Shown: positions 3,098-36,234 of the stretch, piece after piece
Layout: each line of letters begins with the position of its first letter
Numbering within the stretch: position 1 is the stretch's first letter
Assembly: GCA_945787795.1 (NCBI GenBank)
Contig: CALZJD010000003.1
Coordinates: 1 to 43,129 of the forward strand
Length of the DNA stretch: 43,129 nt
Direction of reading: 5' to 3'
From: Thermodesulfovibrionia bacterium
Lineage (GTDB): Bacteria > Nitrospirota > Thermodesulfovibrionia > UBA6902
Program-made: the position numbers and the translations under genes
The notes under the pieces: generated by a model
Seen by the model: the letters and a program-made list of their open reading frames with translations, nothing else
The model's database searches: none
Told to the model about the DNA's origin: nothing

Positions 3098-3835
3098 ATG
3101 GAATTACAAAAGACATTTATCATTTCAGTCTTTGTGCATGTTATTTTTTCTGCTGCCCTTTTATTTTCCGCGGTATTATTCAAGGGCAGCGGGAATAGTG
3201 ATGAGGAGAAAGTTTTCTTCGTGGAACTGGCTATGGAGAAAAATAATGCGGATAGCATGAAATTAGTTTCGAAAAAGAAAGCATTCGCACCGGCAAAAGT
3301 TCAGGGAAAAAATCTGGTTAATGAAAAGCCGCCTGAAATAGTTACGTCAGAGGTTGCCCTGAAACAGGTGCCGGAACTTAGTGAAGAAAAGGTCGTTGAT
3401 AATAACGACCCGATGCAGACGGACACCGATGAAGCAAACGCTGATGAGGAACCGCTACCGGATGATGTACCGGATAGTTCTGAAAATCAGAGAGAAACAG
3501 TTAATGCATCTCTGTTTGCTTCTGTTGAAAGTAAAGGCCCCGGAAATGGCACAGCCAGATCAGGCCTGTCACCTTCCATGCTCGAATTGATCGGAAAAGC
3601 AATAGAAAATGTAAAATCCTATCCAATGCTGGCAAGAAAAAGGGGAATGGAAGGCACTGTTCATGTAAGTTTCAGGATTAATGAAAGCGGCAGGCCCGAT
3701 GAGATCGAGATAAAAAAGAGCTCAGGCCACAGCATCCTTGATTCAGCTACAGTTAAGGTGGTAAAAAAGGCAGCCCCTTACCCTCATACAAATAACAGAG
3801 TTGAAGTACCTGTTGCATACAGGCTCAGAAAGTGA
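3098..3835 (+). CDS. tonB: Energy transducer TonB
   Basis: N-terminal TM helix, acidic/Pro-rich linker and a TonB C-terminal domain (YPMLARKRGMEGTVHVSFRINESGRP...SSGHSILD). Confidence 0.85.
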   Translation: MELQKTFIISVFVHVIFSAALLFSAVLFKGSGNSDEEKVFFVELAMEKNNADSMKLVSKKKAFAPAKVQGKNLVNEKPPEIVTSEVALKQVPELSEEKVVDNNDPMQTDTDEANADEEPLPDDVPDSSENQRETVNASLFASVESKGPGNGTARSGLSPSMLELIGKAIENVKSYPMLARKRGMEGTVHVSFRINESGRPDEIEIKKSSGHSILDSATVKVVKKAAPYPHTNNRVEVPVAYRLRK

Positions 3836-3851
3836 ACAGAGAGATTTTCAG

Positions 3852-4412
3852 ATGTCAGTAAAAATAACATTTGTCATTGGTGGTGCGAGAAGCGGTAAAA
3901 GCTCATTCGTTCTCAACGTGGTATCTAAGCTTGAGGGCGCGAGGGCCTACATCGCAACCGGAGAAGCCCTTGATGACGAAATGCATAATAGGATCAGCAA
4001 ACACAAGGAAGACAGAGGCCCTGAGTGGAACACGTATGAGGAACCGCTAGAAATAGCACATGTTCTTTCAGACATCTTAGACGATCATAGTATTATCGTG
4101 ATTGATTGTCTCACATTGTGGTTGTCGAATGTTCTGATTAGAACCAAGAACAAAGAGCAAAGAACAAAAACTACGGAAGAAAGCATGAAGGAGCTTATTG
4201 ATGTGTTGCAGGGTATCAAGAACTCGTCACCCGTCACGCGTCACGCGTCACGGCTGTTCATCGTTTCCAACGAACTCGGCATGGGCATTGTGCCTGAAAA
4301 TGCAATGGCAAGGGAGTTCAGGGACCTGACAGGTTTTCTCAACCAGAAAGTTGCAGAAATAGCAGATGAGGTATTTCTTGTTACAGCAGGGATACCAATG
4401 AAAATAAAGTAG
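3852..4412 (+). CDS. cobU: Adenosylcobinamide kinase / adenosylcobinamide-phosphate guanylyltransferase
   Basis: P-loop VIGGARSGKS near the N-terminus and the conserved SNELGMGIVPEN...FRD motifs. I chose the start at MSVKITFVIGG; the track's 3801 start overlaps the tonB end and adds non-homologous residues. Confidence 0.88.
   Translation: MSVKITFVIGGARSGKSSFVLNVVSKLEGARAYIATGEALDDEMHNRISKHKEDRGPEWNTYEEPLEIAHVLSDILDDHSIIVIDCLTLWLSNVLIRTKNKEQRTKTTEESMKELIDVLQGIKNSSPVTRHASRLFIVSNELGMGIVPENAMAREFRDLTGFLNQKVAEIADEVFLVTAGIPMKIK
4146..4175 (+). repeat. In-frame heptamer-periodic cassette (AAAGARC units) inside cobU, encoding KNKEQRTKTT
   Basis: The sequence aagaacaaagagcaaagaacaaaaactacg shares the core CAAAGAGCAAAGA(A/G)CAAA with 6643-6672 in cobC. 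Confidence 0.6.
4221..4250 (+). repeat. In-frame 30-nt CGTCAC-heptamer cassette inside cobU, encoding NSSPVTRHAS
   Basis: The sequence AACTCGTCACCCGTCACGCGTCACGCGTCA is 28/30 identical to 8165-8194 and 24/30 identical to 32627-32656. It has a 7-nt periodicity (NNCGTCA x4). Confidence 0.8.
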
Positions 4413-5656: not shown

Positions 5657-5740
5657 GAGCACAGAAACCAGAGCACAGACTACTTATTTTATCTTTTTTT
5701 ATCTTTAGTCTGTATTCTGTCATCTGTGATCTGTAATCTG
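5657..5740 (+). repeat. Inverted heptamer arrays forming a long imperfect hairpin between cobT and cobS
   Basis: The left arm is (N)CAGNNN units (gagcacagaaaccagagcacagact). The right arm is NNTCTGT units (agtctgtattctgtcatctgtgatctgtaatctg). About 17/22 positions pair, and the loop is a T-rich 25 nt. The right arm abuts the cobS ATG. Confidence 0.7.
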
Positions 5741-6526
5741 ATGAGAAAACTAATTCTGGCATTCCAGTTCCTGACAATCATACCGGTAAAGGACACCGGA
5801 GAAATCCCTGATGAGGAGATGGGCCGTGTTGCTGCCTCTTTTCCTGTTGTGGGGTTTGCTGAAGGAACAGTACTTGCCTGTCTTGCATTTCTCCTTTTAA
5901 AAATTCTTCCTGCTGAAGTTGTAAGTGCACTGCTGGTGCTTGTAATGACAATATTAAATGGCGGGCTTCACCTTGACGGCCTTGCCGACACCTTTGACGC
6001 TATCGCCGCCAGAGGTGACAGTGAGAGAAAGCTTTCCATAATGAAGGACAGTTCTACAGGCCCGGCTGGAGTCATTTCGATAGTAATTGTTTTGCTGCTT
6101 ACCTATGTACTACTTAATGCCGTTCATTTTCATGCATCAAAAGACCTCTACTTCGGTATAGTTTTACTTATGCCTGTTGTTTCCCGCTGGACAATGGTGC
6201 CTGCTCTTTACTATGGGAAACCAGCCAGACAGGACGGGTTAGGTAAAGTATTTATAGAATTTACAGGATTAAGAGAGCTCATACTTTCGACATTACTCAT
6301 GTTTCTGGTTGTGGTGATGTATGCTCTTGTATTCTCAGACGTTAACCTGTTTGTTTCATTCTGCATGATGAATTTCCCCGTATTATATGGATTCTGTCTT
6401 CTTACTGTATGGTTTTCAAATATTCATTTTGAAGGATTAACTGGAGACATATTAGGAGCAGTGAATGAAATTGCAAAACTTTTATTTTTAATTACATCAT
6501 TATTATGGCTACAACAGTCTACTTAA
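5741..6526 (+). CDS. cobS: Adenosylcobinamide-GDP ribazoletransferase (cobalamin 5'-phosphate synthase)
   Basis: Polytopic membrane protein with N-terminal LAFQFLTIIPV and the GGLHLDGLADTFD motif typical of CobS. Start taken at MRKLILAF. Confidence 0.88.
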   Translation: MRKLILAFQFLTIIPVKDTGEIPDEEMGRVAASFPVVGFAEGTVLACLAFLLLKILPAEVVSALLVLVMTILNGGLHLDGLADTFDAIAARGDSERKLSIMKDSSTGPAGVISIVIVLLLTYVLLNAVHFHASKDLYFGIVLLMPVVSRWTMVPALYYGKPARQDGLGKVFIEFTGLRELILSTLLMFLVVVMYALVFSDVNLFVSFCMMNFPVLYGFCLLTVWFSNIHFEGLTGDILGAVNEIAKLLFLITSLLWLQQST

Positions 6527-7128
6527 TAAGACACGGCAAAACAGTTGACGCGGATTCAAGGCGTTATAAGGGACATATTGATGTACCCTTGTCTGAGAAT
6601 GGGATCGGGCAGCTGGAAAAACTAGCTGAATATCTATCACAGACAAAAGAGCAAAGAGCAAAGAGCAAAGACATAAATGCTGTATATTCTTCCGGTTTAA
6701 GCCGTGCATTTAAAAGCGCTGAAATCATTGCAAAACCGTTTGGGCTCAAACCGGTCATCATTGAGGACCTTAAAGAGCGCAGCTTTGGCGCATGGGAGGG
6801 CATGACTTTTGATGAGATAAAAGAGAAATGGCCCGATGCGTTTAATGCATGGGCGGAGAATCCTCTGAAGTTCAGCCCTATGGAAGGAGAAAACACCTTG
6901 GAAGTTAAAGAGAGAGCTATGATGGCATTTAATGAAATAATCAGGAATCATAAAGATGAAGAAATAGCCATCGTTACCCATGGAGGAATAACCAGAGTGA
7001 TACTTTGTGAATTGCTCGAGATGCCGCTTGAAAATATATTTCGCATCGAACAGAGTTTTGCTGCATTGAATATAGTTGAATTTTGGGATTATCCTGTAGT
7101 TAAACTCATTAATGGGAGGATTGAGTGA
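6505..7128 (+). CDS. cobC: Alpha-ribazole phosphatase (histidine phosphatase family)
   Basis: The RHG motif (YLIRHGKT) and a later THGG histidine are present. It lies in the cob cluster and overlaps the cobS end. Confidence 0.8.
   Translation: MATTVYLIRHGKTVDADSRRYKGHIDVPLSENGIGQLEKLAEYLSQTKEQRAKSKDINAVYSSGLSRAFKSAEIIAKPFGLKPVIIEDLKERSFGAWEGMTFDEIKEKWPDAFNAWAENPLKFSPMEGENTLEVKERAMMAFNEIIRNHKDEEIAIVTHGGITRVILCELLEMPLENIFRIEQSFAALNIVEFWDYPVVKLINGRIE
6643..6672 (+). repeat. In-frame heptamer cassette (AAAGAGC x3-4) inside cobC, encoding TKEQRAKSKD
   Basis: The sequence is acaaaagagcaaagagcaaagagcaaagac. It is related to 4146-4175. Confidence 0.65.
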
Positions 7129-7645: not shown

Positions 7646-8326
7646 ATGTATAAAGTATTTGTCATAGGTATAGGATTTCGTCCTCTTGATAAAAAGGCCA
7701 GCACAGCTCTTTTGCAGTCAGATGTCGTACTTACCAATGACAGGCTGCTTGAAGCATTTAAAGATTATGCTGAATATAAGAATGTTCAAGACAGAATTGT
7801 ATCTCTGAAAGATATTCATGAGACAAAACAATATATTCGTGATAATTATAGAAGCAAGGCAATAGCCCTGTTGGCTGTGGGAGATCCCATGTTTTTCGGT
7901 ATTGGCAGGGTAATTAAAGATGAAATTGGCAAAGAGGCCATGGAGGTCTATCCTGATTTATCAAGTATACAGGTGGCCTTTGCAAGGATTAAGGAGCCAT
8001 CAAGCAATGCATTCATCATAAGTCTTCATGGCGGACCTGATCCGGATAACAGAAGGAAACTTGAGTATGAGATTACTGAACTGCCTGATCTGCTTACACA
8101 GCATAAAAAAATAGCAATCCTTACGGACAGGATAAACAGCCCGACAGAAATAGCAAAGACACTCAACTCGTCACCCGTCATCCGTCACGCGTCACCAAGA
8201 ATGTATGTCTGTGAAAAACTGGGATACGATGATGAGAAAATCACAGATGGGTTACCGGAAGAAATCGCTGCAGCCTCCCATGTCCATCCAAACGTGGTAA
8301 TCATTGTATATGGTGAGAATGACTGA
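7646..8326 (+). CDS. cbiE: Cobalt-precorrin-7 (C5)-methyltransferase / precorrin-6Y methylase CbiE-like
   Basis: Tetrapyrrole methylase fold motifs are present (VIGIG..., LLAVGDPMFFGIG). Confidence 0.75.
   Translation: MYKVFVIGIGFRPLDKKASTALLQSDVVLTNDRLLEAFKDYAEYKNVQDRIVSLKDIHETKQYIRDNYRSKAIALLAVGDPMFFGIGRVIKDEIGKEAMEVYPDLSSIQVAFARIKEPSSNAFIISLHGGPDPDNRRKLEYEITELPDLLTQHKKIAILTDRINSPTEIAKTLNSSPVIRHASPRMYVCEKLGYDDEKITDGLPEEIAAASHVHPNVVIIVYGEND
8165..8194 (+). repeat. In-frame 30-nt CGTCAC-heptamer cassette inside cbiE, encoding NSSPVIRHAS
   Basis: The sequence AACTCGTCACCCGTCATCCGTCACGCGTCA is 28/30 identical to the cobU copy and sits in the same reading phase. Confidence 0.8.
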
Positions 8327-13968: not shown

Positions 13969-15842
13969 GTCGAGTGGCGCGGGGGAATCTCACCCTCCAC
14001 GCTCTCACAGATCCGGACGTGAACCTCTCAGCTCATCCGGCTCCTATCGTCCAACCGGTGGTCGAAAACCTGCCCGCCAATGTGCAAACAGTAGTGGCTG
14101 CTGACGAGCTAATCGTCCCAGCCAGTGCATTGCTCTTCGACGGTGGCCTTTCAATTTCTTGTATTTCCTCATTACCCATCGCATCAGAATACGATCAAAT
14201 ACGTGAAACGTAAAATAAAGTGCAGACTTGTAGTACTGTCCATAGTAATTTATCCATCCTCGAAGGATTGGGTTGCAGATGTATGACAGCTCTTCAAGGC
14301 TTTTGTCACTACGACGGTGAAATCGCCAACTTCTCATGACGTGGCGTATCTTCTTGATCGCTTTATTGCTCACCGCCGGACTGAAATTGACAAGGCACTT
14401 TCCAAACCGAGTCATTGAGTTTCTAGGTCTAAATGTATATCCCAAGAAGTCGAATTTCTCATTCAGATACCTACCTCGCCTCCTGCCATCCTTACAGTAG
14501 ACAATCTTCGTCTTTGAAGGATGAAGCTCCAGTTTGCACTGCAAAAGCCTCTTTTCAATCATAACCTTGATCCACTGAGCTTGTTTCTCACTCACGCAGT
14601 GCACGATGATATCGTCAGCATAACGCTCAAATGGTATAGTTGGATAGTTCTTCCTCATCCATTCATCAAATGCGTAATGGAGAAAAAGATTTGCCAGCAA
14701 AGGACTAATAACAGAACCCTGTGGCGTACCCTTGAGACGCTCTACACGTCTCCTATCTTCCCGTTGTGCTGGTGCCTTTAACCATCTCTTAATGTACAAC
14801 AGAATCCACTTGCTATCCGTATGCTTCCGCACCGCTCTCATCATGAGGTTATGCTCCAGATTATCAAAGAACCCTTTGATATCCAGATCCAAAGCCCAGT
14901 CATACTGCCAGCATCTCTGCCGTGCAACTCCTACTGCCTCAACTGCTGACTTTCCAGTCCTGTACCCATAAGAGTCTGGATGAAAGTGAGGATCTACATC
15001 GGGCTCCAGATACTTCTTTACCACCATCTGGGCAACTCGATCACTTACCGTAGGTATCCCTAGTGGCCTTTTGCCTCCATCTACCTTTGGTATCTCCACT
15101 ATCCGTACCGCTGGGGGAAAGTAGCTCCCTGAAGACATCCGATTCCAGAGCTTGTAAAGATTATTCTTTAAATCTTTTTCAAACTCCTCAATCGACTCCT
15201 CATCTACTCCGGCAGCACCTTTGTTTGCCTTTACTCTCTGATACGCTTCCCATACTACTTGTTTGGAAATACTAAACGGTTTTGCTTTACCCAATAGCTC
15301 CTCCCACTGAATGGTTGACTATTTTTTCAAAGCTGGACGATATAATCCCCTTCGCTCCAGTTCCATTACGAACTTTCTTCACTACTACGGGATTACTCCG
15401 CCCCCTTCATGTGCATCGATACTTTCCCCTTCGTGGGTCTCACTTATAGGTTTTCTCTTAGCATCACATGAAGAGTTCCCACGTTCCACACAAAAGCCTG
15501 TATCAGGTTCATGCCACCTTTATGCCGGACGCCGCTCAGGCAGTAAGCAGGTCTCCTCCTGAACTTATCCTGGTGTCAACAAAGCCACCAGTTTTGACGT
15601 CATCTTTAACTTTTCGACACCTCATCGGTGGTTCGCTTTCGCTCATCTCCCTGATCCTTACCTCGCCACGATCCTGTGCCGTGACTTTCCTTAACGCTCA
15701 CCACACCAGCTTTTGACTAATGCAGCTTAAGGTGGTTTGAAGCCTGCTCCTGCAAGCCGACTCCGAGGGGCCCTCCCTCATCTCATGTGCAGCATCGAAT
15801 GCTTTATCCTTCACCTCCTTTCAGCACTCGTTCGTGGCGCAC
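13969..15842 (-). mobile_element. Group II intron (complete; RT/maturase ORF in domain IV, no endonuclease domain)
   Basis: On the minus strand the 5' end is GTGCGCC at 15842. A domain V-like hairpin GAGCCGGATGAGCTGAGAGGTTCACGTCCGGATC starts 1 nt after the ORF stop. It is followed by a domain VI helix with an unpaired A 7 nt from the ...CTCGAC 3' end. Boundaries are accurate to about +/-5 nt. Confidence 0.85.
14044..15294 (-). CDS. Group II intron reverse transcriptase/maturase
   Basis: RT motifs are present, including YADDIIV, as is the maturase X domain (GWINYYG). The C-terminus ...LFAHWRAGFRPPVGR has no HNH motif. Confidence 0.92.
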   Translation of the reverse strand: MGKAKPFSISKQVVWEAYQRVKANKGAAGVDEESIEEFEKDLKNNLYKLWNRMSSGSYFPPAVRIVEIPKVDGGKRPLGIPTVSDRVAQMVVKKYLEPDVDPHFHPDSYGYRTGKSAVEAVGVARQRCWQYDWALDLDIKGFFDNLEHNLMMRAVRKHTDSKWILLYIKRWLKAPAQREDRRRVERLKGTPQGSVISPLLANLFLHYAFDEWMRKNYPTIPFERYADDIIVHCVSEKQAQWIKVMIEKRLLQCKLELHPSKTKIVYCKDGRRRGRYLNEKFDFLGYTFRPRNSMTRFGKCLVNFSPAVSNKAIKKIRHVMRSWRFHRRSDKSLEELSYICNPILRGWINYYGQYYKSALYFTFHVFDRILMRWVMRKYKKLKGHRRRAMHWLGRLARQQPLLFAHWRAGFRPPVGR

Positions 15843-32152: not shown

Positions 32153-32824
32153 TTGGAGAAATCATCGATGAAATTAATACATTTTTACAGGACACCTATC
32201 CTTTCTGAATCAGAGAATCAAGCGCTTCTGGCAGCTGTTCAATCCCGTGTTTCAGGGAATATTGGTGATATACAGACAGAACACTGTTTCAATATTGCTG
32301 TTGAGAAAGCATTAACACCAGATGAAATGAAAGTCCTGATCTGGCTTCTGTCCGAGACATTTGAACCCGACAAATTTTCTGATAAGAGTTTTTTAACTGA
32401 TGACAAAGCACCCCCCTTTAATTCCCCCCTTACCAAGGGGGAACACAGGGGGGGCATTCTTGAAGTCGGCCCAAGGATGAACTTCAGCACAGCATGGTCC
32501 ACAAATGCCGTTTCAATCTGTCATGCCTGTGGATTGAAAAAAATATCCAGAATTGAACGTTCCCGAAGATATCAATTTGTATTCAGCAAAGATGCGCCAT
32601 TGAGCAGTGAACAAATTGCAGGCATATACTCGTCACTCGTTACTGATCACGCGTCACTGCTGTACGACCGGATGACAGAATGTCACTACCCTGAACAGTT
32701 ATCAACATTTGAAACCGGTATGAAGCCTGAACCTGTTATTGAGATCCCATTAATTGAGCAGGGAAAAGAGGCGCTTGAAACTGGGACCTTGATTACTATT
32801 ACAACCTGTTCGTTAAGGACATAG
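32153..32824 (+). CDS. purL: Phosphoribosylformylglycinamidine synthase (large single-chain type), N-terminal fragment
   Basis: It aligns by eye to the E. coli PurL N-terminal domain (...VGPRMNFSTAWSTNAVSICHACGL...YDRMTE...). The frame is lost near 32778. The start is TTG. Confidence 0.8.
   Translation: MEKSSMKLIHFYRTPILSESENQALLAAVQSRVSGNIGDIQTEHCFNIAVEKALTPDEMKVLIWLLSETFEPDKFSDKSFLTDDKAPPFNSPLTKGEHRGGILEVGPRMNFSTAWSTNAVSICHACGLKKISRIERSRRYQFVFSKDAPLSSEQIAGIYSSLVTDHASLLYDRMTECHYPEQLSTFETGMKPEPVIEIPLIEQGKEALETGTLITITTCSLRT
32411..32454. repeat. C/G-run nested palindrome inserted in frame in purL (encodes PPFNSPLTKGEHRGG)
   Basis: The sequence is cccccctttaattccccccttaccaagggggaacacaggggggg. 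The inner stem is CCCCCTT/AAGGGGG and the outer stem is CCCCCCT/AGGGGGG. Confidence 0.7.
32627..32656 (+). repeat. In-frame 30-nt CGTCAC-heptamer cassette inside purL, encoding YSSLVTDHAS
   Basis: TACTCGTCACTCGTTACTGATCACGCGTCA is 24/30 identical to the cobU copy and in the same reading phase. Its position corresponds to a gap relative to E. coli PurL (..VAAELHDRMME..). Confidence 0.7.
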
Positions 32825-32949: not shown

Positions 32950-35900
32950 TTGATAAAGAAACCGCTTGATGCACATCCAAATAACAGTATTATTGCCTTT
33001 AAAGATAACTCCAGTTCTATAAGGGGATATTCTATTGAAACCATTGTTCCTGAACATCCGGGACAGTCTTCCCTGTTTACCATATCAGCTTCCCGGTACG
33101 ATCCGATATTTACTGCGGAAACTCATAACTTTCCGAGCGGTGTTGCTCCTTTTCCCGGCGCTGAGACCGGCACGGGCGGAAGGATCAGGGATGTTCAGGC
33201 AACCGGCAGGGGAGGACTTGTCATTGCAGGAACAGCTGCTTACTGTGTCGGCAACCTCATGGTGCCGGGATATGATCTTCCCTGGGAAGATAAGAGTTTT
33301 GAGTATCCTGAAAACCTTGCTTCTCCTTTAGAAATAGAGATCCAGGCAAGCAACGGCGCTTCTGATTATGGAAACAAATTTGGCGAGCCCGTTATTCAGG
33401 GATATACGCGGTCTTTTGGCATGAGGCTCAATTCCGGAGAGAGATATGAATGGATAAAACCGATCATGTTCACCGCAGGTGTTGGCCAGATGGACTCGGG
33501 ACATATCGAAAAAGGCGCCCCTAACACAGGCATGCTCGTTGTAAAAATCGGCGGGCCTGCCTATAGAATCGGTATAGGAGGCGGTGCCGCTTCCAGCATG
33601 ATTCAGGGAGAAAATATTGCTGAGCTGGACTTCAATGCGGTACAGCGCGGTGATGCAGAAATGGAACAGAAAATGAACCGCGCCCTTCGCACCTGTATTG
33701 AACTTGGGGAAGCAAATCCTGTAATTAGCATCCATGATCAGGGCGCAGGAGGAAACTGTAATGTTGTCAAGGAAATCATTTATCCGGCAGGAGCAAAGAT
33801 CGAGGTCAGAAAGATCCAGCTTGGTGATAACACCCTGTCCGTCCTGGAAATATGGGGGGCAGAATATCAGGAGCAAAATGCACTTTTAATAGAGCAAAAC
33901 AGCATTGATATATTTGAAAACATCTGTAACCGGGAAAAAGTCCCCTTTGCCGTTATTGGCCGTATATCAGGAGACGGCAGGATTGTACTGTATGATGAAA
34001 AAGATGACAGCACGCCTGTAAATCTGGATCTGGAAAAAGTTCTGGGTGACATGCCGCAAAAGACGTTTACCCTGGACCGTTTACACACTCAGGCAACTCC
34101 TCTACAGCTGCCTGAAGACATTACCATAAAAAGCGCACTGGAAAGAGTGCTGCGGCTGGTGTCGGTTGGCTCCAAGAGATTTCTTACAAATAAAGTTGAC
34201 CGCAGCGTGACCGGATTAATTGCACGCCAGCAGTGCTGCGGTCCTCTGCAGTTAACCGTTGCAGATGTGGCTGTCGTTGCCCAGAGCCACCTTGGTCTGA
34301 CAGGGGCGGCCATTTCAATAGGTGAACAGCCATTAAAGACCCTCCTTGATCCTGCTGCCATGGCGCGCATGAGTGTTGGCGAGGCGATTACAAATATTGT
34401 GTGGGCCAGATTAAGCGCCTTTGAAGATATTAAATGTTCGGGAAACTGGATGTGGGCTGCAAAACTTCCCGGAGAAGGTGCCCTGCTGTATGATGCTGCT
34501 GTTGCACTCAGCAATATGCTCACTGACCTTGGTATAGCCATAGACGGCGGAAAAGACAGCCTTTCCATGGCTACGCAGGTCAGAAGTAAAAACGGAACCT
34601 CTGAAACCGTCAAATCTCCGGGCACGCTTGTTATCTCTGCATATGCTACATGCCCTGATATAACAAAGGTAATTACCCCGGACATAAAACTACCCGGCAA
34701 CAGCAAATTGATGTATATCGATTTGGGAGAAGGAAAGAACCGCATGGGAGGCACCGCACTGGCGCAGGTGTTTAATCAAACAGGCGATGAATCGCCTGAT
34801 GTTAATGACCCTCTGCAATTAAAAAAAGCTTTTACAGCCATTCAGACATTGATTGAAAATGACCTTATCTTATCAGGCCATGACAGGAGTGACGGCGGTC
34901 TCATCACAACATTGCTTGAAATGGCCTTTGCGGGAAACTGCGGAATGGAAATAACTACAGGGGTCAGGGGTAATGGGTCAGAGGTAATGGGAGAAGATAT
35001 TATTGCAGAGCTTTTTTGTGAAGAATTGGGACTTGTTATTGAATACCTTCCTGATCATGAAGCACAGATATCCTCTTTACTGCAGGAATTAAACGTTCCA
35101 TATCAAATAGTCGGAAAAACTCATACTGATACAAATATTAAAGTGACTGTCAATGAAAATGTCGTTCTTGATGAAAAGATGATAGCCCTGCGAAATATCT
35201 GGGAAGAGACCAGTTATGAACTTGAGAAGCTCCAGGCAGATCCTGCATGCGCAGAAGAAGAAAGAAAGAATATATTCGACAGAAAAGGACCTGATTACCG
35301 TTTGAGATTTACTCCTGAAGATACCCCTGATGTGATAATAAAGAGTGATAAAAAACATAAAGTGGCAATCATCCGGGAAGAAGGCAGCAACAGTGACAGG
35401 GAAATGACCTCTGCTTTTTACCGGGCCGGTTTTGAGACATGGGATGTTGCCATGACCGATTTCCTTGAAGACAGGATCAGGCTTTCCGATTTCAGGGGCG
35501 TGGCCTTTGTCGGGGGGTTCAGCTATGCCGATGTGCTTGATTCGGCAAAAGGCTGGGCCGGGGTTATCAGGTTTAATGAAAAAATATGGGACGAATTCCA
35601 GAATTTTTATAAGAGACCTGATACCTTCAGCCTTGGTGTCTGCAACGGGTGCCAGTTAATGGCCCTGCTTGGCTGGATTCCATGGCAGGGGATAGAGGAC
35701 AATATCCAGCCGCGGTTTATTCATAACAGGTCCGGAAGGTTTGAGTCCCGGTTTTCATCAGTGAAAATACTTTCCAGTCCATCACTCATGTTAAAAGGTA
35801 TGGAAGATTCGGTCCTCGGGATATGGGTGGCCCATGGTGAAGGCAGGGCATATTTCCCTGACAGGGACATTCTGAAGAAGATTAATGATGATAATCTGGC

Positions 35901-36162
35901 GCCCATACGATATGTAGATGATAATAATGAGATCACAACTCATTATCCATTCAACCCGAACGGTTCTGAAAACGGGATAGCTTCCCTGTGTTCCCCTGAT
36001 GGAAGGCATCTGGCCATTATGCCGCATCCTGAAAGGACATTTCTGAAATGGCACTGGCCCTGGATGCCTGAAAAGTGGAAGCAGGATCTGGATACTTCCC
36101 CCTGGCTGAAAATGTTTCAGAATGCCAGGGAATGGTGTGAAACTGATAAAGACAGCAGTTAG
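32950..36162 (+). CDS. purL: Phosphoribosylformylglycinamidine synthase, main fragment (FGAM synthetase + C-terminal glutaminase)
   Basis: Motifs ETHNFPS, GAETGTGGRIRD and GVCNGCQ are present, as is the PHPER glutaminase triad context. Homology in this frame already begins at about 32779 (NWDLDYYYNLF..GRNPTNVE..SNSEHSRH). The first usable start codon is TTG at 32950. Confidence 0.85.
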   Translation: MIKKPLDAHPNNSIIAFKDNSSSIRGYSIETIVPEHPGQSSLFTISASRYDPIFTAETHNFPSGVAPFPGAETGTGGRIRDVQATGRGGLVIAGTAAYCVGNLMVPGYDLPWEDKSFEYPENLASPLEIEIQASNGASDYGNKFGEPVIQGYTRSFGMRLNSGERYEWIKPIMFTAGVGQMDSGHIEKGAPNTGMLVVKIGGPAYRIGIGGGAASSMIQGENIAELDFNAVQRGDAEMEQKMNRALRTCIELGEANPVISIHDQGAGGNCNVVKEIIYPAGAKIEVRKIQLGDNTLSVLEIWGAEYQEQNALLIEQNSIDIFENICNREKVPFAVIGRISGDGRIVLYDEKDDSTPVNLDLEKVLGDMPQKTFTLDRLHTQATPLQLPEDITIKSALERVLRLVSVGSKRFLTNKVDRSVTGLIARQQCCGPLQLTVADVAVVAQSHLGLTGAAISIGEQPLKTLLDPAAMARMSVGEAITNIVWARLSAFEDIKCSGNWMWAAKLPGEGALLYDAAVALSNMLTDLGIAIDGGKDSLSMATQVRSKNGTSETVKSPGTLVISAYATCPDITKVITPDIKLPGNSKLMYIDLGEGKNRMGGTALAQVFNQTGDESPDVNDPLQLKKAFTAIQTLIENDLILSGHDRSDGGLITTLLEMAFAGNCGMEITTGVRGNGSEVMGEDIIAELFCEELGLVIEYLPDHEAQISSLLQELNVPYQIVGKTHTDTNIKVTVNENVVLDEKMIALRNIWEETSYELEKLQADPACAEEERKNIFDRKGPDYRLRFTPEDTPDVIIKSDKKHKVAIIREEGSNSDREMTSAFYRAGFETWDVAMTDFLEDRIRLSDFRGVAFVGGFSYADVLDSAKGWAGVIRFNEKIWDEFQNFYKRPDTFSLGVCNGCQLMALLGWIPWQGIEDNIQPRFIHNRSGRFESRFSSVKILSSPSLMLKGMEDSVLGIWVAHGEGRAYFPDRDILKKINDDNLAPIRYVDDNNEITTHYPFNPNGSENGIASLCSPDGRHLAIMPHPERTFLKWHWPWMPEKWKQDLDTSPWLKMFQNAREWCETDKDSS
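34960..34989 (+). repeat. In-frame heptamer cassette (GGGTNAN units) inside purL, encoding GVRGNGSEVM
   Basis: The units are ggggtca ggggtaa tgggtca gaggtaa tg. The region is about 7 aa longer than the corresponding E. coli PurL loop. Confidence 0.55.
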
Positions 36163-36234
36163 TAGATAGTAGTTAAGGGAAAAGAATTGAACATGCAGGC
36201 CCTAACTACCAGCTACTGACTACTAACTACTTTT
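36158..36234 (+). terminator. Heptamer-array hairpin plus T tract after purL
   Basis: The left arm is gttagtagatagtagttaaggg. The right arm is ccc taactac cagctac tgactac taactac. The arms are largely complementary and are followed by TTTT. Confidence 0.6.

Follow-up and report, generated by a model that had tools for sequence, protein, structure and literature searches.

Tandem arrays of seven-nucleotide units have long been noticed in many bacterial genomes, where they remain unexplained and have until now been described as intergenic and possibly regulatory. Known families include the short tandemly repeated repetitive (STRR) sequences of Calothrix and Nostoc and the GGGNATC arrays of Xanthomonas and Nostoc, the latter being under-represented in coding regions of both genera and showing a preference for four units that has been ascribed to G-quadruplexes (PMC4692102), as well as the TAACTGA arrays of Beggiatoaceae, cyanobacteria and Bacteroidetes (PMC4679880). 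In the Beggiatoa genome BOGUAY, 10 of 169 array sets are interior to open reading frames (ORFs), mostly at the ends of the proteins (PMC4679880), and the over-representation of heptamers is credited to Mrazek et al. 2007 in both of these papers (PMC4692102, PMC4679880). A different kind of repeat, the Rickettsia palindromic element (Ogata et al. 2000), is summarised in PMC10969869 as a palindromic sequence of about 100-150 bp, similar to miniature inverted-repeat transposable elements and encoding a conserved peptide. In this work, we analyzed a heptamer array that is translated within cbiE, a gene of corrinoid biosynthesis, in a 43,129-nucleotide (nt) stretch of DNA (contig CALZJD010000003.1, hereafter the window) from a Thermodesulfovibrionia bacterium of the phylum Nitrospirota. 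A literature search, which covered few subscription journals, found no paper joining heptamer repeats with Nitrospirota.

A heptamer array translated within cbiE

The cbiE gene of the window (positions 7646-8326, forward strand) encodes a 226-residue precorrin-6Y methyltransferase subunit (Pfam TP_methylase, E = 2e-19) whose homologues are named CbiE; an exact-match look-up of the protein returned no identical protein on record. Four tandem units, TCGTCAC CCGTCAT CCGTCAC GCGTCAC, occupy positions 8168-8195 on the forward strand and are read in frame as SSPVIRHAS(P), residues 175-183, the 7-nt unit consensus being N-C-G-T-C-A-C. A sister array with the same phase, TCGTCAC CCGTCAC GCGTCAC GCGTCAC, lies in site B of cobU (4224-4251, forward strand; SSPVTRHAS), and a third, degenerate one of the same family and phase, TCGTCAC TCGTTAC TGATCAC GCGTCAC, in the N-terminal domain of purL (32630-32657, forward strand; SSLVTDHAS). 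Tandem Repeats Finder (TRF) reported period 7 and 4.0 copies at 8169-8196 in cbiE and at 4225-4252 in cobU, and CGTCACNCGTCAC, with at most one mismatch, has seven matches in the window when 0.04 are expected from shuffled sequence. The first-pass annotation of the window had seen neither the period-7 tandem structure, nor the bounds 8168-8195, nor the copy in purL. It had started from two 30-nt segments, AACTCGTCACCCGTCATCCGTCACGCGTCA at 8165-8194 and AACTCGTCACCCGTCACGCGTCACGCGTCA at 4221-4250, and its description of them holds: 28 of the 30 bases are equal, both mismatches being adjacent (CG versus TC at 8181-8182), an AAC codon stands ahead of both copies, and the two host proteins are unrelated, cobU (3801-4412) being assigned to the Pfam family CobU (E = 1.8e-55). 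The two segments share the phase AAC TCG TCA CCC GTC, giving NSSPVIRHAS in cbiE and NSSPVTRHAS in cobU.

As 7 and 3 have no common factor, the array passes through all three codon phases, which yields SSPV(T/I)RHAS, and since the complementary strand has a TGA in every frame, an NCGTCAC array can be tolerated within genes in one orientation only. The cbiE array is made of direct repeats only, with no terminal inverted repeats and no hairpin. A scan of the window with Rfam 15 at gathering-score thresholds gave no match overlapping it, the only two matches being to a group II intron (13969-15779), and folding of the array region was no better than that of shuffled sequences (z = +1.35; 190 of 200 shuffles folded at least equally well); with both results null at the site, a structured-RNA reading was dropped. 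In the AlphaFold model, the array-coded residues connect a helix (166-174) to a strand (185-190); the confidence is high across this loop, probably owing to the many array-bearing sequences in the alignment, and informs little beyond the helix-to-strand connection itself. A PDB sequence search with CbiE aligned confidently at residues 59-130 only and did not place the loop.

Conservation at this site tracks the heptamer and not the codon. When six close CbiE orthologues were compared over 188 codons, nucleotide diversity (pi) at third codon positions was 0.364 in the flanking sequence (179 sites), 0.048 within the GTCAC core (7 sites) and 0.533 at the variable NN sites (2 sites). The core is thus about 8 times less variable than its flanks at these positions, and of 20000 sets of seven sites drawn at random from these flanks, 19 were as conserved (p about 0.001 by resampling). 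Between units, much of the variation consists of CG to TG or CA changes, and a parallel CpG decay in each unit may therefore contribute. Together with the unrelated heptamers found at the same loop elsewhere, these values bear out the view of the first-pass annotation that the identity of the two segments lies at the nucleotide level and does not reflect protein convergence. A conserved protein motif SSPVTRHAS common to two corrinoid enzymes, for instance a His-containing ligand loop, might be suspected given that both hosts act on corrinoids and that the peptide is kept in many orthologues. However, the conservation follows the 7-nt unit, a third copy lies in purL, the segment is absent from the solved CobU, and CbiE orthologues of other lineages have different peptides at the same place (NSELRTPNSEL and KPSAVSCQLSAL, which like others are His-free, as well as NLSPIAHSLLPV and KGSGGRGQGLEV, among others). 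Contradicted by the synonymous-site pattern and by the His-free replacements, a functional peptide of this kind is scarcely credible and was rejected.

Age of the array and its relation to cobU

For comparison, we used orthologous operon DNA from a complete genome (L001, CP070632.1), from contigs L002 and L203-L208 and from 80 metagenome loci (L123-L202). The CbiE homologues at 50-95% identity come from sources named Nitrospiraceae, Nitrospirae, Thermodesulfovibrionia and Dissulfurispiraceae. A four-unit GTCAC-type array occupies the same CbiE codon position in L123-L126, L129 and L001 (78-85% identity) and, at about 51-64% identity, in L002, L134, L137, L149, L162 and others; the 18-residue form of the loop is present in 49 of 120 homologous proteins. 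The cobU array is equally widespread, CobU orthologues at 57-85% identity carrying VTRHASR, ITHHASR and similar peptides. In L207, which is 95% identical to the window at the nucleotide level, the cbiE array is base-identical, and presence/absence polymorphism among strains, which the first-pass annotation had suggested looking for, was not seen at this site at that identity.

The same annotation had taken the likeness of the two segments as the mark of a recent insertion, copying or conversion, i.e. of a 30-nt cassette passed between cobU and cbiE in the window genome. Such an event could have left the 28/30 identity, the shared phase and the shared preceding AAC, and the order of variable positions in the window cobU array equals that of the L123 cbiE array, which is presumably ancestral. 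However, both arrays are found at the same sites in orthologues of 51-85% identity, and the cobU array of the window is matched by the cbiE arrays of other genomes (30/30 in L123, 29/30 in L208, and 28/30 in each of L124, L125 and L126) as well as or better than by its own cbiE partner (28/30). Within genomes, cobU and cbiE arrays agree at 26/30 bases in L208 and at 23/30 in L001, and no excess similarity between them was found in the three genomes with both arrays. Since the cbiE arrays of other genomes match the window cobU array equally or better, a recent insertion or copy in the window genome is unsupported and, in our judgment, highly improbable; the cbiE array is old and has been inherited vertically at its site. 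Of the original proposal, the word "recent" does not stand, given that orthologues down to about 51-55% identity carry the array, and an older exchange may have occurred. The orthologues that keep the segment also have the motif elsewhere in their genomes; the opposite situation, a conserved segment in genomes otherwise lacking the motif, which the annotation had named as telling against transfer, was not encountered. The likeness between cobU and cbiE is best read as that of two four-unit arrays that share the unit family and the phase and in which few variants occur at the variable position.

Evidence bearing on an older exchange comes from a sublineage with about 77% identity to the window, where the GTCAC arrays of cobU and of cbiE alike contain, precisely between two units, a 21-nt palindrome, CTGCCTGCCGG[CT]AGGCA[AC]GGC, encoding LPAGRQG. 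The palindrome follows unit 3 in cobU of L203 (704-724) and L204 (1005-1025) and in cbiE of L127 (1034-1054) and L205 (734-754), and unit 2 in the cbiE loop of L206. Similar palindromes were observed in other contexts in L126 and L159. This would mean either that sequence passes between the arrays of different genes or that the unit boundaries of GTCAC arrays are the target of a tiny palindromic element: targeting by an element is favored by the shifted place in L206 and by a related palindrome in CAGAACA arrays (P0147), and exchange by the second unit of the L127 cbiE array, which is GC, as is typical of cobU arrays. An old or occasional exchange between dispersed arrays of the same family, by short-tract gene conversion or whole-array copying and with cobU and cbiE sharing a history, would account for this cobU-like unit and for the same palindrome between units 3 and 4 in the two genes, and identical heterogeneous arrays are found twice per contig in other phyla (L005, L022, L089). 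Against it, the palindromes of L206 and P0147 may reflect independent targeting of unit boundaries by a small element, the four loci with the palindrome after unit 3 come from different samples, its presence in both genes being seen across loci and not within one genome, and the three genomes with both arrays reveal no homogenization between cobU and cbiE. We regard such an exchange as possible, although we lean against it.

Heptamer arrays across sites, lineages and phyla

The CbiE loop carries arrays of other heptamers in other lineages, namely (GTCAGCT)4, (AACTCCG)4, (CCTATNG)4 and (CAGGGGT)4, all of four units and all starting directly after the same AA[CG] codon, i.e. in the register of the window array; array-less orthologues have 13-15 residues at the loop versus 18-21. 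At the GTCAC site of CbiE, the unit number is four, and in frame, in every array-bearing orthologue, and no 3- or 5-unit allele was found among the orthologues and strains examined. Site A of cobU, which in the window holds an AGAACAA array of 4.1 copies (4140-4168, forward strand; KNKEQRTK), is likewise a lineage-variable array site, at a 6-residue gap relative to the solved CobU 8yep, where orthologues have CAGAACA-type arrays with the peptide RTQNTEHRTQ. Site B, at a 9-residue gap relative to the same structure, shows GTCAC, SSVCSLKSGFC, GTRNPESGTR and other forms in orthologues, and in cobC, L208 (about 85% identical) has (AACTCAA) x4.3 exactly where the window has a perfect in-frame (AAAGAGC) array of 3.7 copies (6646-6671, forward strand), the protein length being equal. 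Elsewhere, relatives show length differences equal to 3 or 6 units (21 and 42 nt) but also whole blocks of 27-28 and 33 nt; this range of block sizes, along with loop differences of 4-6 residues, led us to reject, as a general account of the four-unit preference, a fixed model in which three units (+21 nt) arise from a seed unit. A frameshift at the cobU array of L002 was also rejected as a case of phase variation, as it is a 1-nt change in an A run and may be a sequencing error, the contig name suggesting a long-read assembly. Besides, the CbiE loop contains period-8 arrays (TTCCGCAC x4) in some lineages (L154, about 2590-2625; L142, 3161-3195), and in L131 (about 5830-5960; P0026, P0036, P0025) a long insert encoding ...FIARSPGEVRTTKQSIPSATFEIASPTVRNDT..., which resembles the translation of another dispersed repeat, of hairpin type.

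When the 653,615 nt of CbiE-orthologue loci were searched with TRF, 229 period-7 arrays were found versus 10 in shuffled sequence, and periods 8 (80 versus 15), 9 (51 versus 6) and 14 (50 versus 3) were enriched as well. Copy number has its mode at four (102 of 229 arrays), the most frequent length is 31 nt, and perfect repetition is seen in 35 of the 163 arrays that reach 3.5 copies or more. Judged by stop-free frames of at least 150 codons, 201 of the 229 arrays (about 88%) are in reading frames, compared with 90% of all bases, i.e. the arrays are not depleted from coding DNA. On the sense strand, TCA occurs in 58% of 168 coding arrays versus 13% expected, and TAG or TGA in none; since TGA is the reverse complement of TCA, TCA-bearing arrays are readable in one orientation only. 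The codon phases of four-unit TCA-core arrays (30, 7 and 15) were left unused since orthologous sites count many times. Between relatives, arrays differ at 29.7% of aligned columns versus 9.7% elsewhere, and complete replacement by another array is seen at the same site. Composite hairpins of heptamer arrays were also observed (L132, 8503-8573; L142, 1898-1971; L145, 6092-6160; L164, about 6090-6190), in which a G-rich array is followed about 10 nt on by a pairing C-rich array (GGGGTCA / CCCCTTG), one such case being an in-frame 90-nt insert made of two mutually complementary arrays. Between two loci of 99.3% identity (L166 at 5847 and L167 at 5796), one difference is an 84-nt element with a 27-nt direct repeat (AAAGGGACTTTGTCCCTTTAAAACCCT) on either side, and another, at L166 6043, is a 33-nt tandem duplication.

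The window itself holds eight period-7 arrays according to TRF, of which the cbiE array and five more are inside Pfam-supported genes, and the in-frame arrays of cobU, cbiE, purL and cobC occupy permissive sites of unrelated housekeeping genes. In addition to the arrays described above, an (ATCTGTA)-type array of 5.7 copies (5701-5740, forward strand) spans the cobT/cobS junction and the start of cobS, a (CAGGGGT)/14-mer array lies in purL (34958-34991, forward strand), CAGGGGT being the most frequent heptamer family in the related loci, and a (CTAACTA) array of 4.3 copies (36202-36231, forward strand) is intergenic, downstream of purL. The purL gene is split into two ORFs in different frames (32153-32824 and 32950-36162), with a break near 32775-32800 at which about 10-15 residues expected ahead of WDLDYYYNLF seem to be lacking. 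Either a pseudogene or an error of assembly could account for the break, which has no obvious connection to the heptamer arrays. The group II intron, on the reverse strand, is recognized by Rfam RF00029 at 13969-14045 and RF01999 at 15661-15779, and the ORF of 416 residues between both matches (14044-15294, reverse strand) presumably is the intron-encoded reverse transcriptase.

The GTCAC family is also present in other phyla. A (GTCACNN)x4 scan of one genome per species yielded, among the matches listed, Acidobacteriota (many Pyrinomonadaceae), cyanobacteria (Scytonema, Sphaerospermopsis), Saprospiraceae, Bacteroidales, Omnitrophota, Verrucomicrobiota, Dialister, Streptomyces, Shewanella and Alcanivorax, with arrays of 4 to 22 units in which NN often varies inside one array and GTCAC is constant. 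In IMG/VR viral contigs (L209-L288), the pattern occurs in more than 120 contigs among the matches listed, some of the arrays being long and placed at contig ends. In Pyrinomonadaceae (L065, L075, L083, L102, L110, L113 and others), a (T[CT]GTCAC)x4 array ends about 7-12 nt upstream of an ATG, as in ...GTCACtgttcttATG, and so takes the place of the ribosome-binding site, as described for the TAACTGA arrays of Beggiatoaceae. Moreover, in L005 (1967-2043), L022 (6673-6878), L089 and L049, identical heterogeneous GTCAC arrays occur twice in inverted orientation, 25-400 nt apart, which implies either whole-array copying or divergent 5' leaders that share one array.

Two further explanations were weighed against this body of data. 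The first one is that the arrays are selfish insertion cassettes of about 27-33 nt, inserted by an enzyme and surviving within genes only when in frame in permissive loops, in the manner of Rickettsia palindromic elements. It would suit (i) the array sizes, which cluster sharply at 4-4.7 units (about 31 nt) whether the DNA is coding or not, (ii) the relatives that differ by the presence or absence of an entire array (27-28 and 33 nt), (iii) the different arrays at one site in genomes that are 85-93% identical, and (iv) the occurrence of the same family in many phyla and in viral contigs. However, the arrays have neither terminal inverted repeats, nor a hairpin, nor a recognizable target duplication, their units are heterogeneous, no candidate enzyme was found, and the shared register of cbiE-site arrays in all lineages fits descent better than repeated independent insertion, all of which makes such cassettes rather unlikely in our view. 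The second one is a functional nucleic-acid motif, either UCA/GUCAC triplets spaced by 7 nt and bound by a multimeric single-strand RNA/DNA-binding protein or an antisense element with stops in all frames. A core conserved far above synonymous sites and the excess of TCA on the sense strand speak for it, as do the arrays that other phyla place a few nucleotides upstream of start codons (see also PMC4679880) and the influence of heptamer repeats on recF and recO expression in Nostoc (bioRxiv 10.1101/2022.06.06.494920). On the other hand, in other lineages the site holds unrelated heptamers or lacks an array altogether, and nothing indicates that the enzyme has lost its function there; moreover, arrays in general change about 3 times faster between relatives than the sequence around them. 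We know of no binding partner for GTCAC arrays, and a function of this type seems to us quite unlikely.

Origin of the arrays and comparison with described systems

The explanation that we favor, and consider probable though by no means secure, is that an STRR-like tandem array is tolerated in a permissive loop of CbiE and kept periodic by homogenization between its units. The position is taken to be permissive on account of the gaps of CobU relative to 8yep, the shorter loop in array-less CbiE and the connecting loop in the structural model. The array is simply translated within the loop that connects helix to strand; neighboring units would be homogenized non-reciprocally when they become misaligned by 7 nt for a short time in replication or repair and are then corrected, with the number of units remaining constant; and such homogenization, together with ordinary mutation, would let the unit drift among lineages while the array stays periodic, in frame and at four units in register. 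Protein-level selection would then demand only a loop of tolerable length, and the stability of the GTCAC core within the clade may be due to conversion by other members of its array family or to a weak selection acting on the nucleic-acid motif. The clearest sign of homogenization is found in L208, whose cobU array is a perfect (CCGTCAC) x4.3, whereas the variable positions read TC, CC, GC, GC in the window and TC, CC, TC, TC in L001; drift with homogenization matches the patterns of the cbiE, cobU and cobC sites.

Several points weigh against homogenization in a permissive loop. First, plain slippage predicts 7-nt polymorphism in unit number and steadily falling copy numbers, and the orthologues all have four units, with a copy-number peak that is sharp at four even when non-coding arrays are included. 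Second, neutral drift with homogenization does not predict an 8-fold conservation of the core over synonymous sites, which suggests a function or a reservoir of donor arrays. Third, the window cobU and L123 cbiE arrays share the order TC, CC, GC, GC at their variable positions and, along with the shared palindrome, this points to whole-array copying or conversion between loci. Fourth, the presence/absence blocks of 21, 27-28, 33 and 42 nt between near relatives could equally be de novo insertions. In addition, the distinction between coding and non-coding arrays is crude, as it is drawn from stop-free frames and not from gene models. All in all, the preference for four units, the low variability of the GTCAC core and the absence of 3- and 5-unit alleles are left unexplained by this model.

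A further reading is that a dedicated process, and not passive slippage, generates and renews the heptamer arrays of the Nitrospirota lineage. The fixed size of about four units at fixed sites inside essential genes, the rewriting of the unit at constant length and register between genomes 7-15% apart, and the acquisition of the same nested 21-nt palindrome by arrays in different genes would all favor it. We hold such a process to be unlikely; if it did exist, it would amount to a new kind of intragenic repeat system, self-renewing or templated, by which protein loops are continually remodeled and in whose spread phages may take part.

Taken alone, the cbiE site is a modest finding, and the interest resides in the pattern of fixed sites, register and unit number combined with lineage-specific units, a pattern only partly explained. 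What is new here is that in-frame arrays are found in core enzymes about as densely as in other DNA, and that dozens of lineages offer orthologous sites for comparison. Such comparable sites make it possible to test how arrays are born, why four units are preferred and whether homogenization, conversion between loci or selection acts on them. Since GTCAC repeats cannot form G-quadruplexes, the preference for four units is not peculiar to repeats that do. For annotators and structure predictors, SSPVTRHAS, RTQNTEHRTQ or SAVSCQLSA in these genomes should be expected to be translated repeat DNA and not functional motifs.

With regard to described systems, the cbiE array resembles Rickettsia palindromic elements in that repeat DNA is found in frame at permissive positions of unrelated metabolic genes and is translated as an extra peptide, but it consists of 28 nt of direct tandem repeats, has no inverted repeats, and carries a unit that differs between lineages at one site. 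As in the contingency loci of Haemophilus and Neisseria, the unit is not a multiple of three and lies within an ORF, so that the change of one unit would shift the frame; in contrast to them, the four units are heterogeneous, no variation in unit number was seen in the orthologues and strains examined, and the hosts are core biosynthetic genes, whereas those of contingency loci are surface or restriction-modification genes. The very small dispersed repeats of Nostoc/Anabaena (Elhai et al. 2008) reportedly measure about 20-30 nt and are scattered over the genome, in some cases inside genes and nested in further repeats, and they are not known to be internally periodic heptamer arrays.

The closest relatives are the STRR and long simple-sequence repeats, and by its structure the cbiE array belongs to this heptanucleotide tandem-repeat class. 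It shares with them (i) tandem 7-nt units in many dispersed arrays, (ii) two to six copies with four preferred, (iii) a conserved core with variable positions, (iv) the lack of predicted secondary structure, and (v) a wide and patchy phylogenetic spread. It differs in that the published families are overwhelmingly intergenic and near start codons, whereas about 88% of the arrays reported here are in reading frames, in the middle of enzymes encoded by housekeeping genes and at orthologous positions, and in that NCGTCAC is another unit family, unable to form G-quadruplexes. An intergenic location is, however, a property of the STRR families described so far and not a strict definition, and it is in this respect that the cbiE array departs from them.

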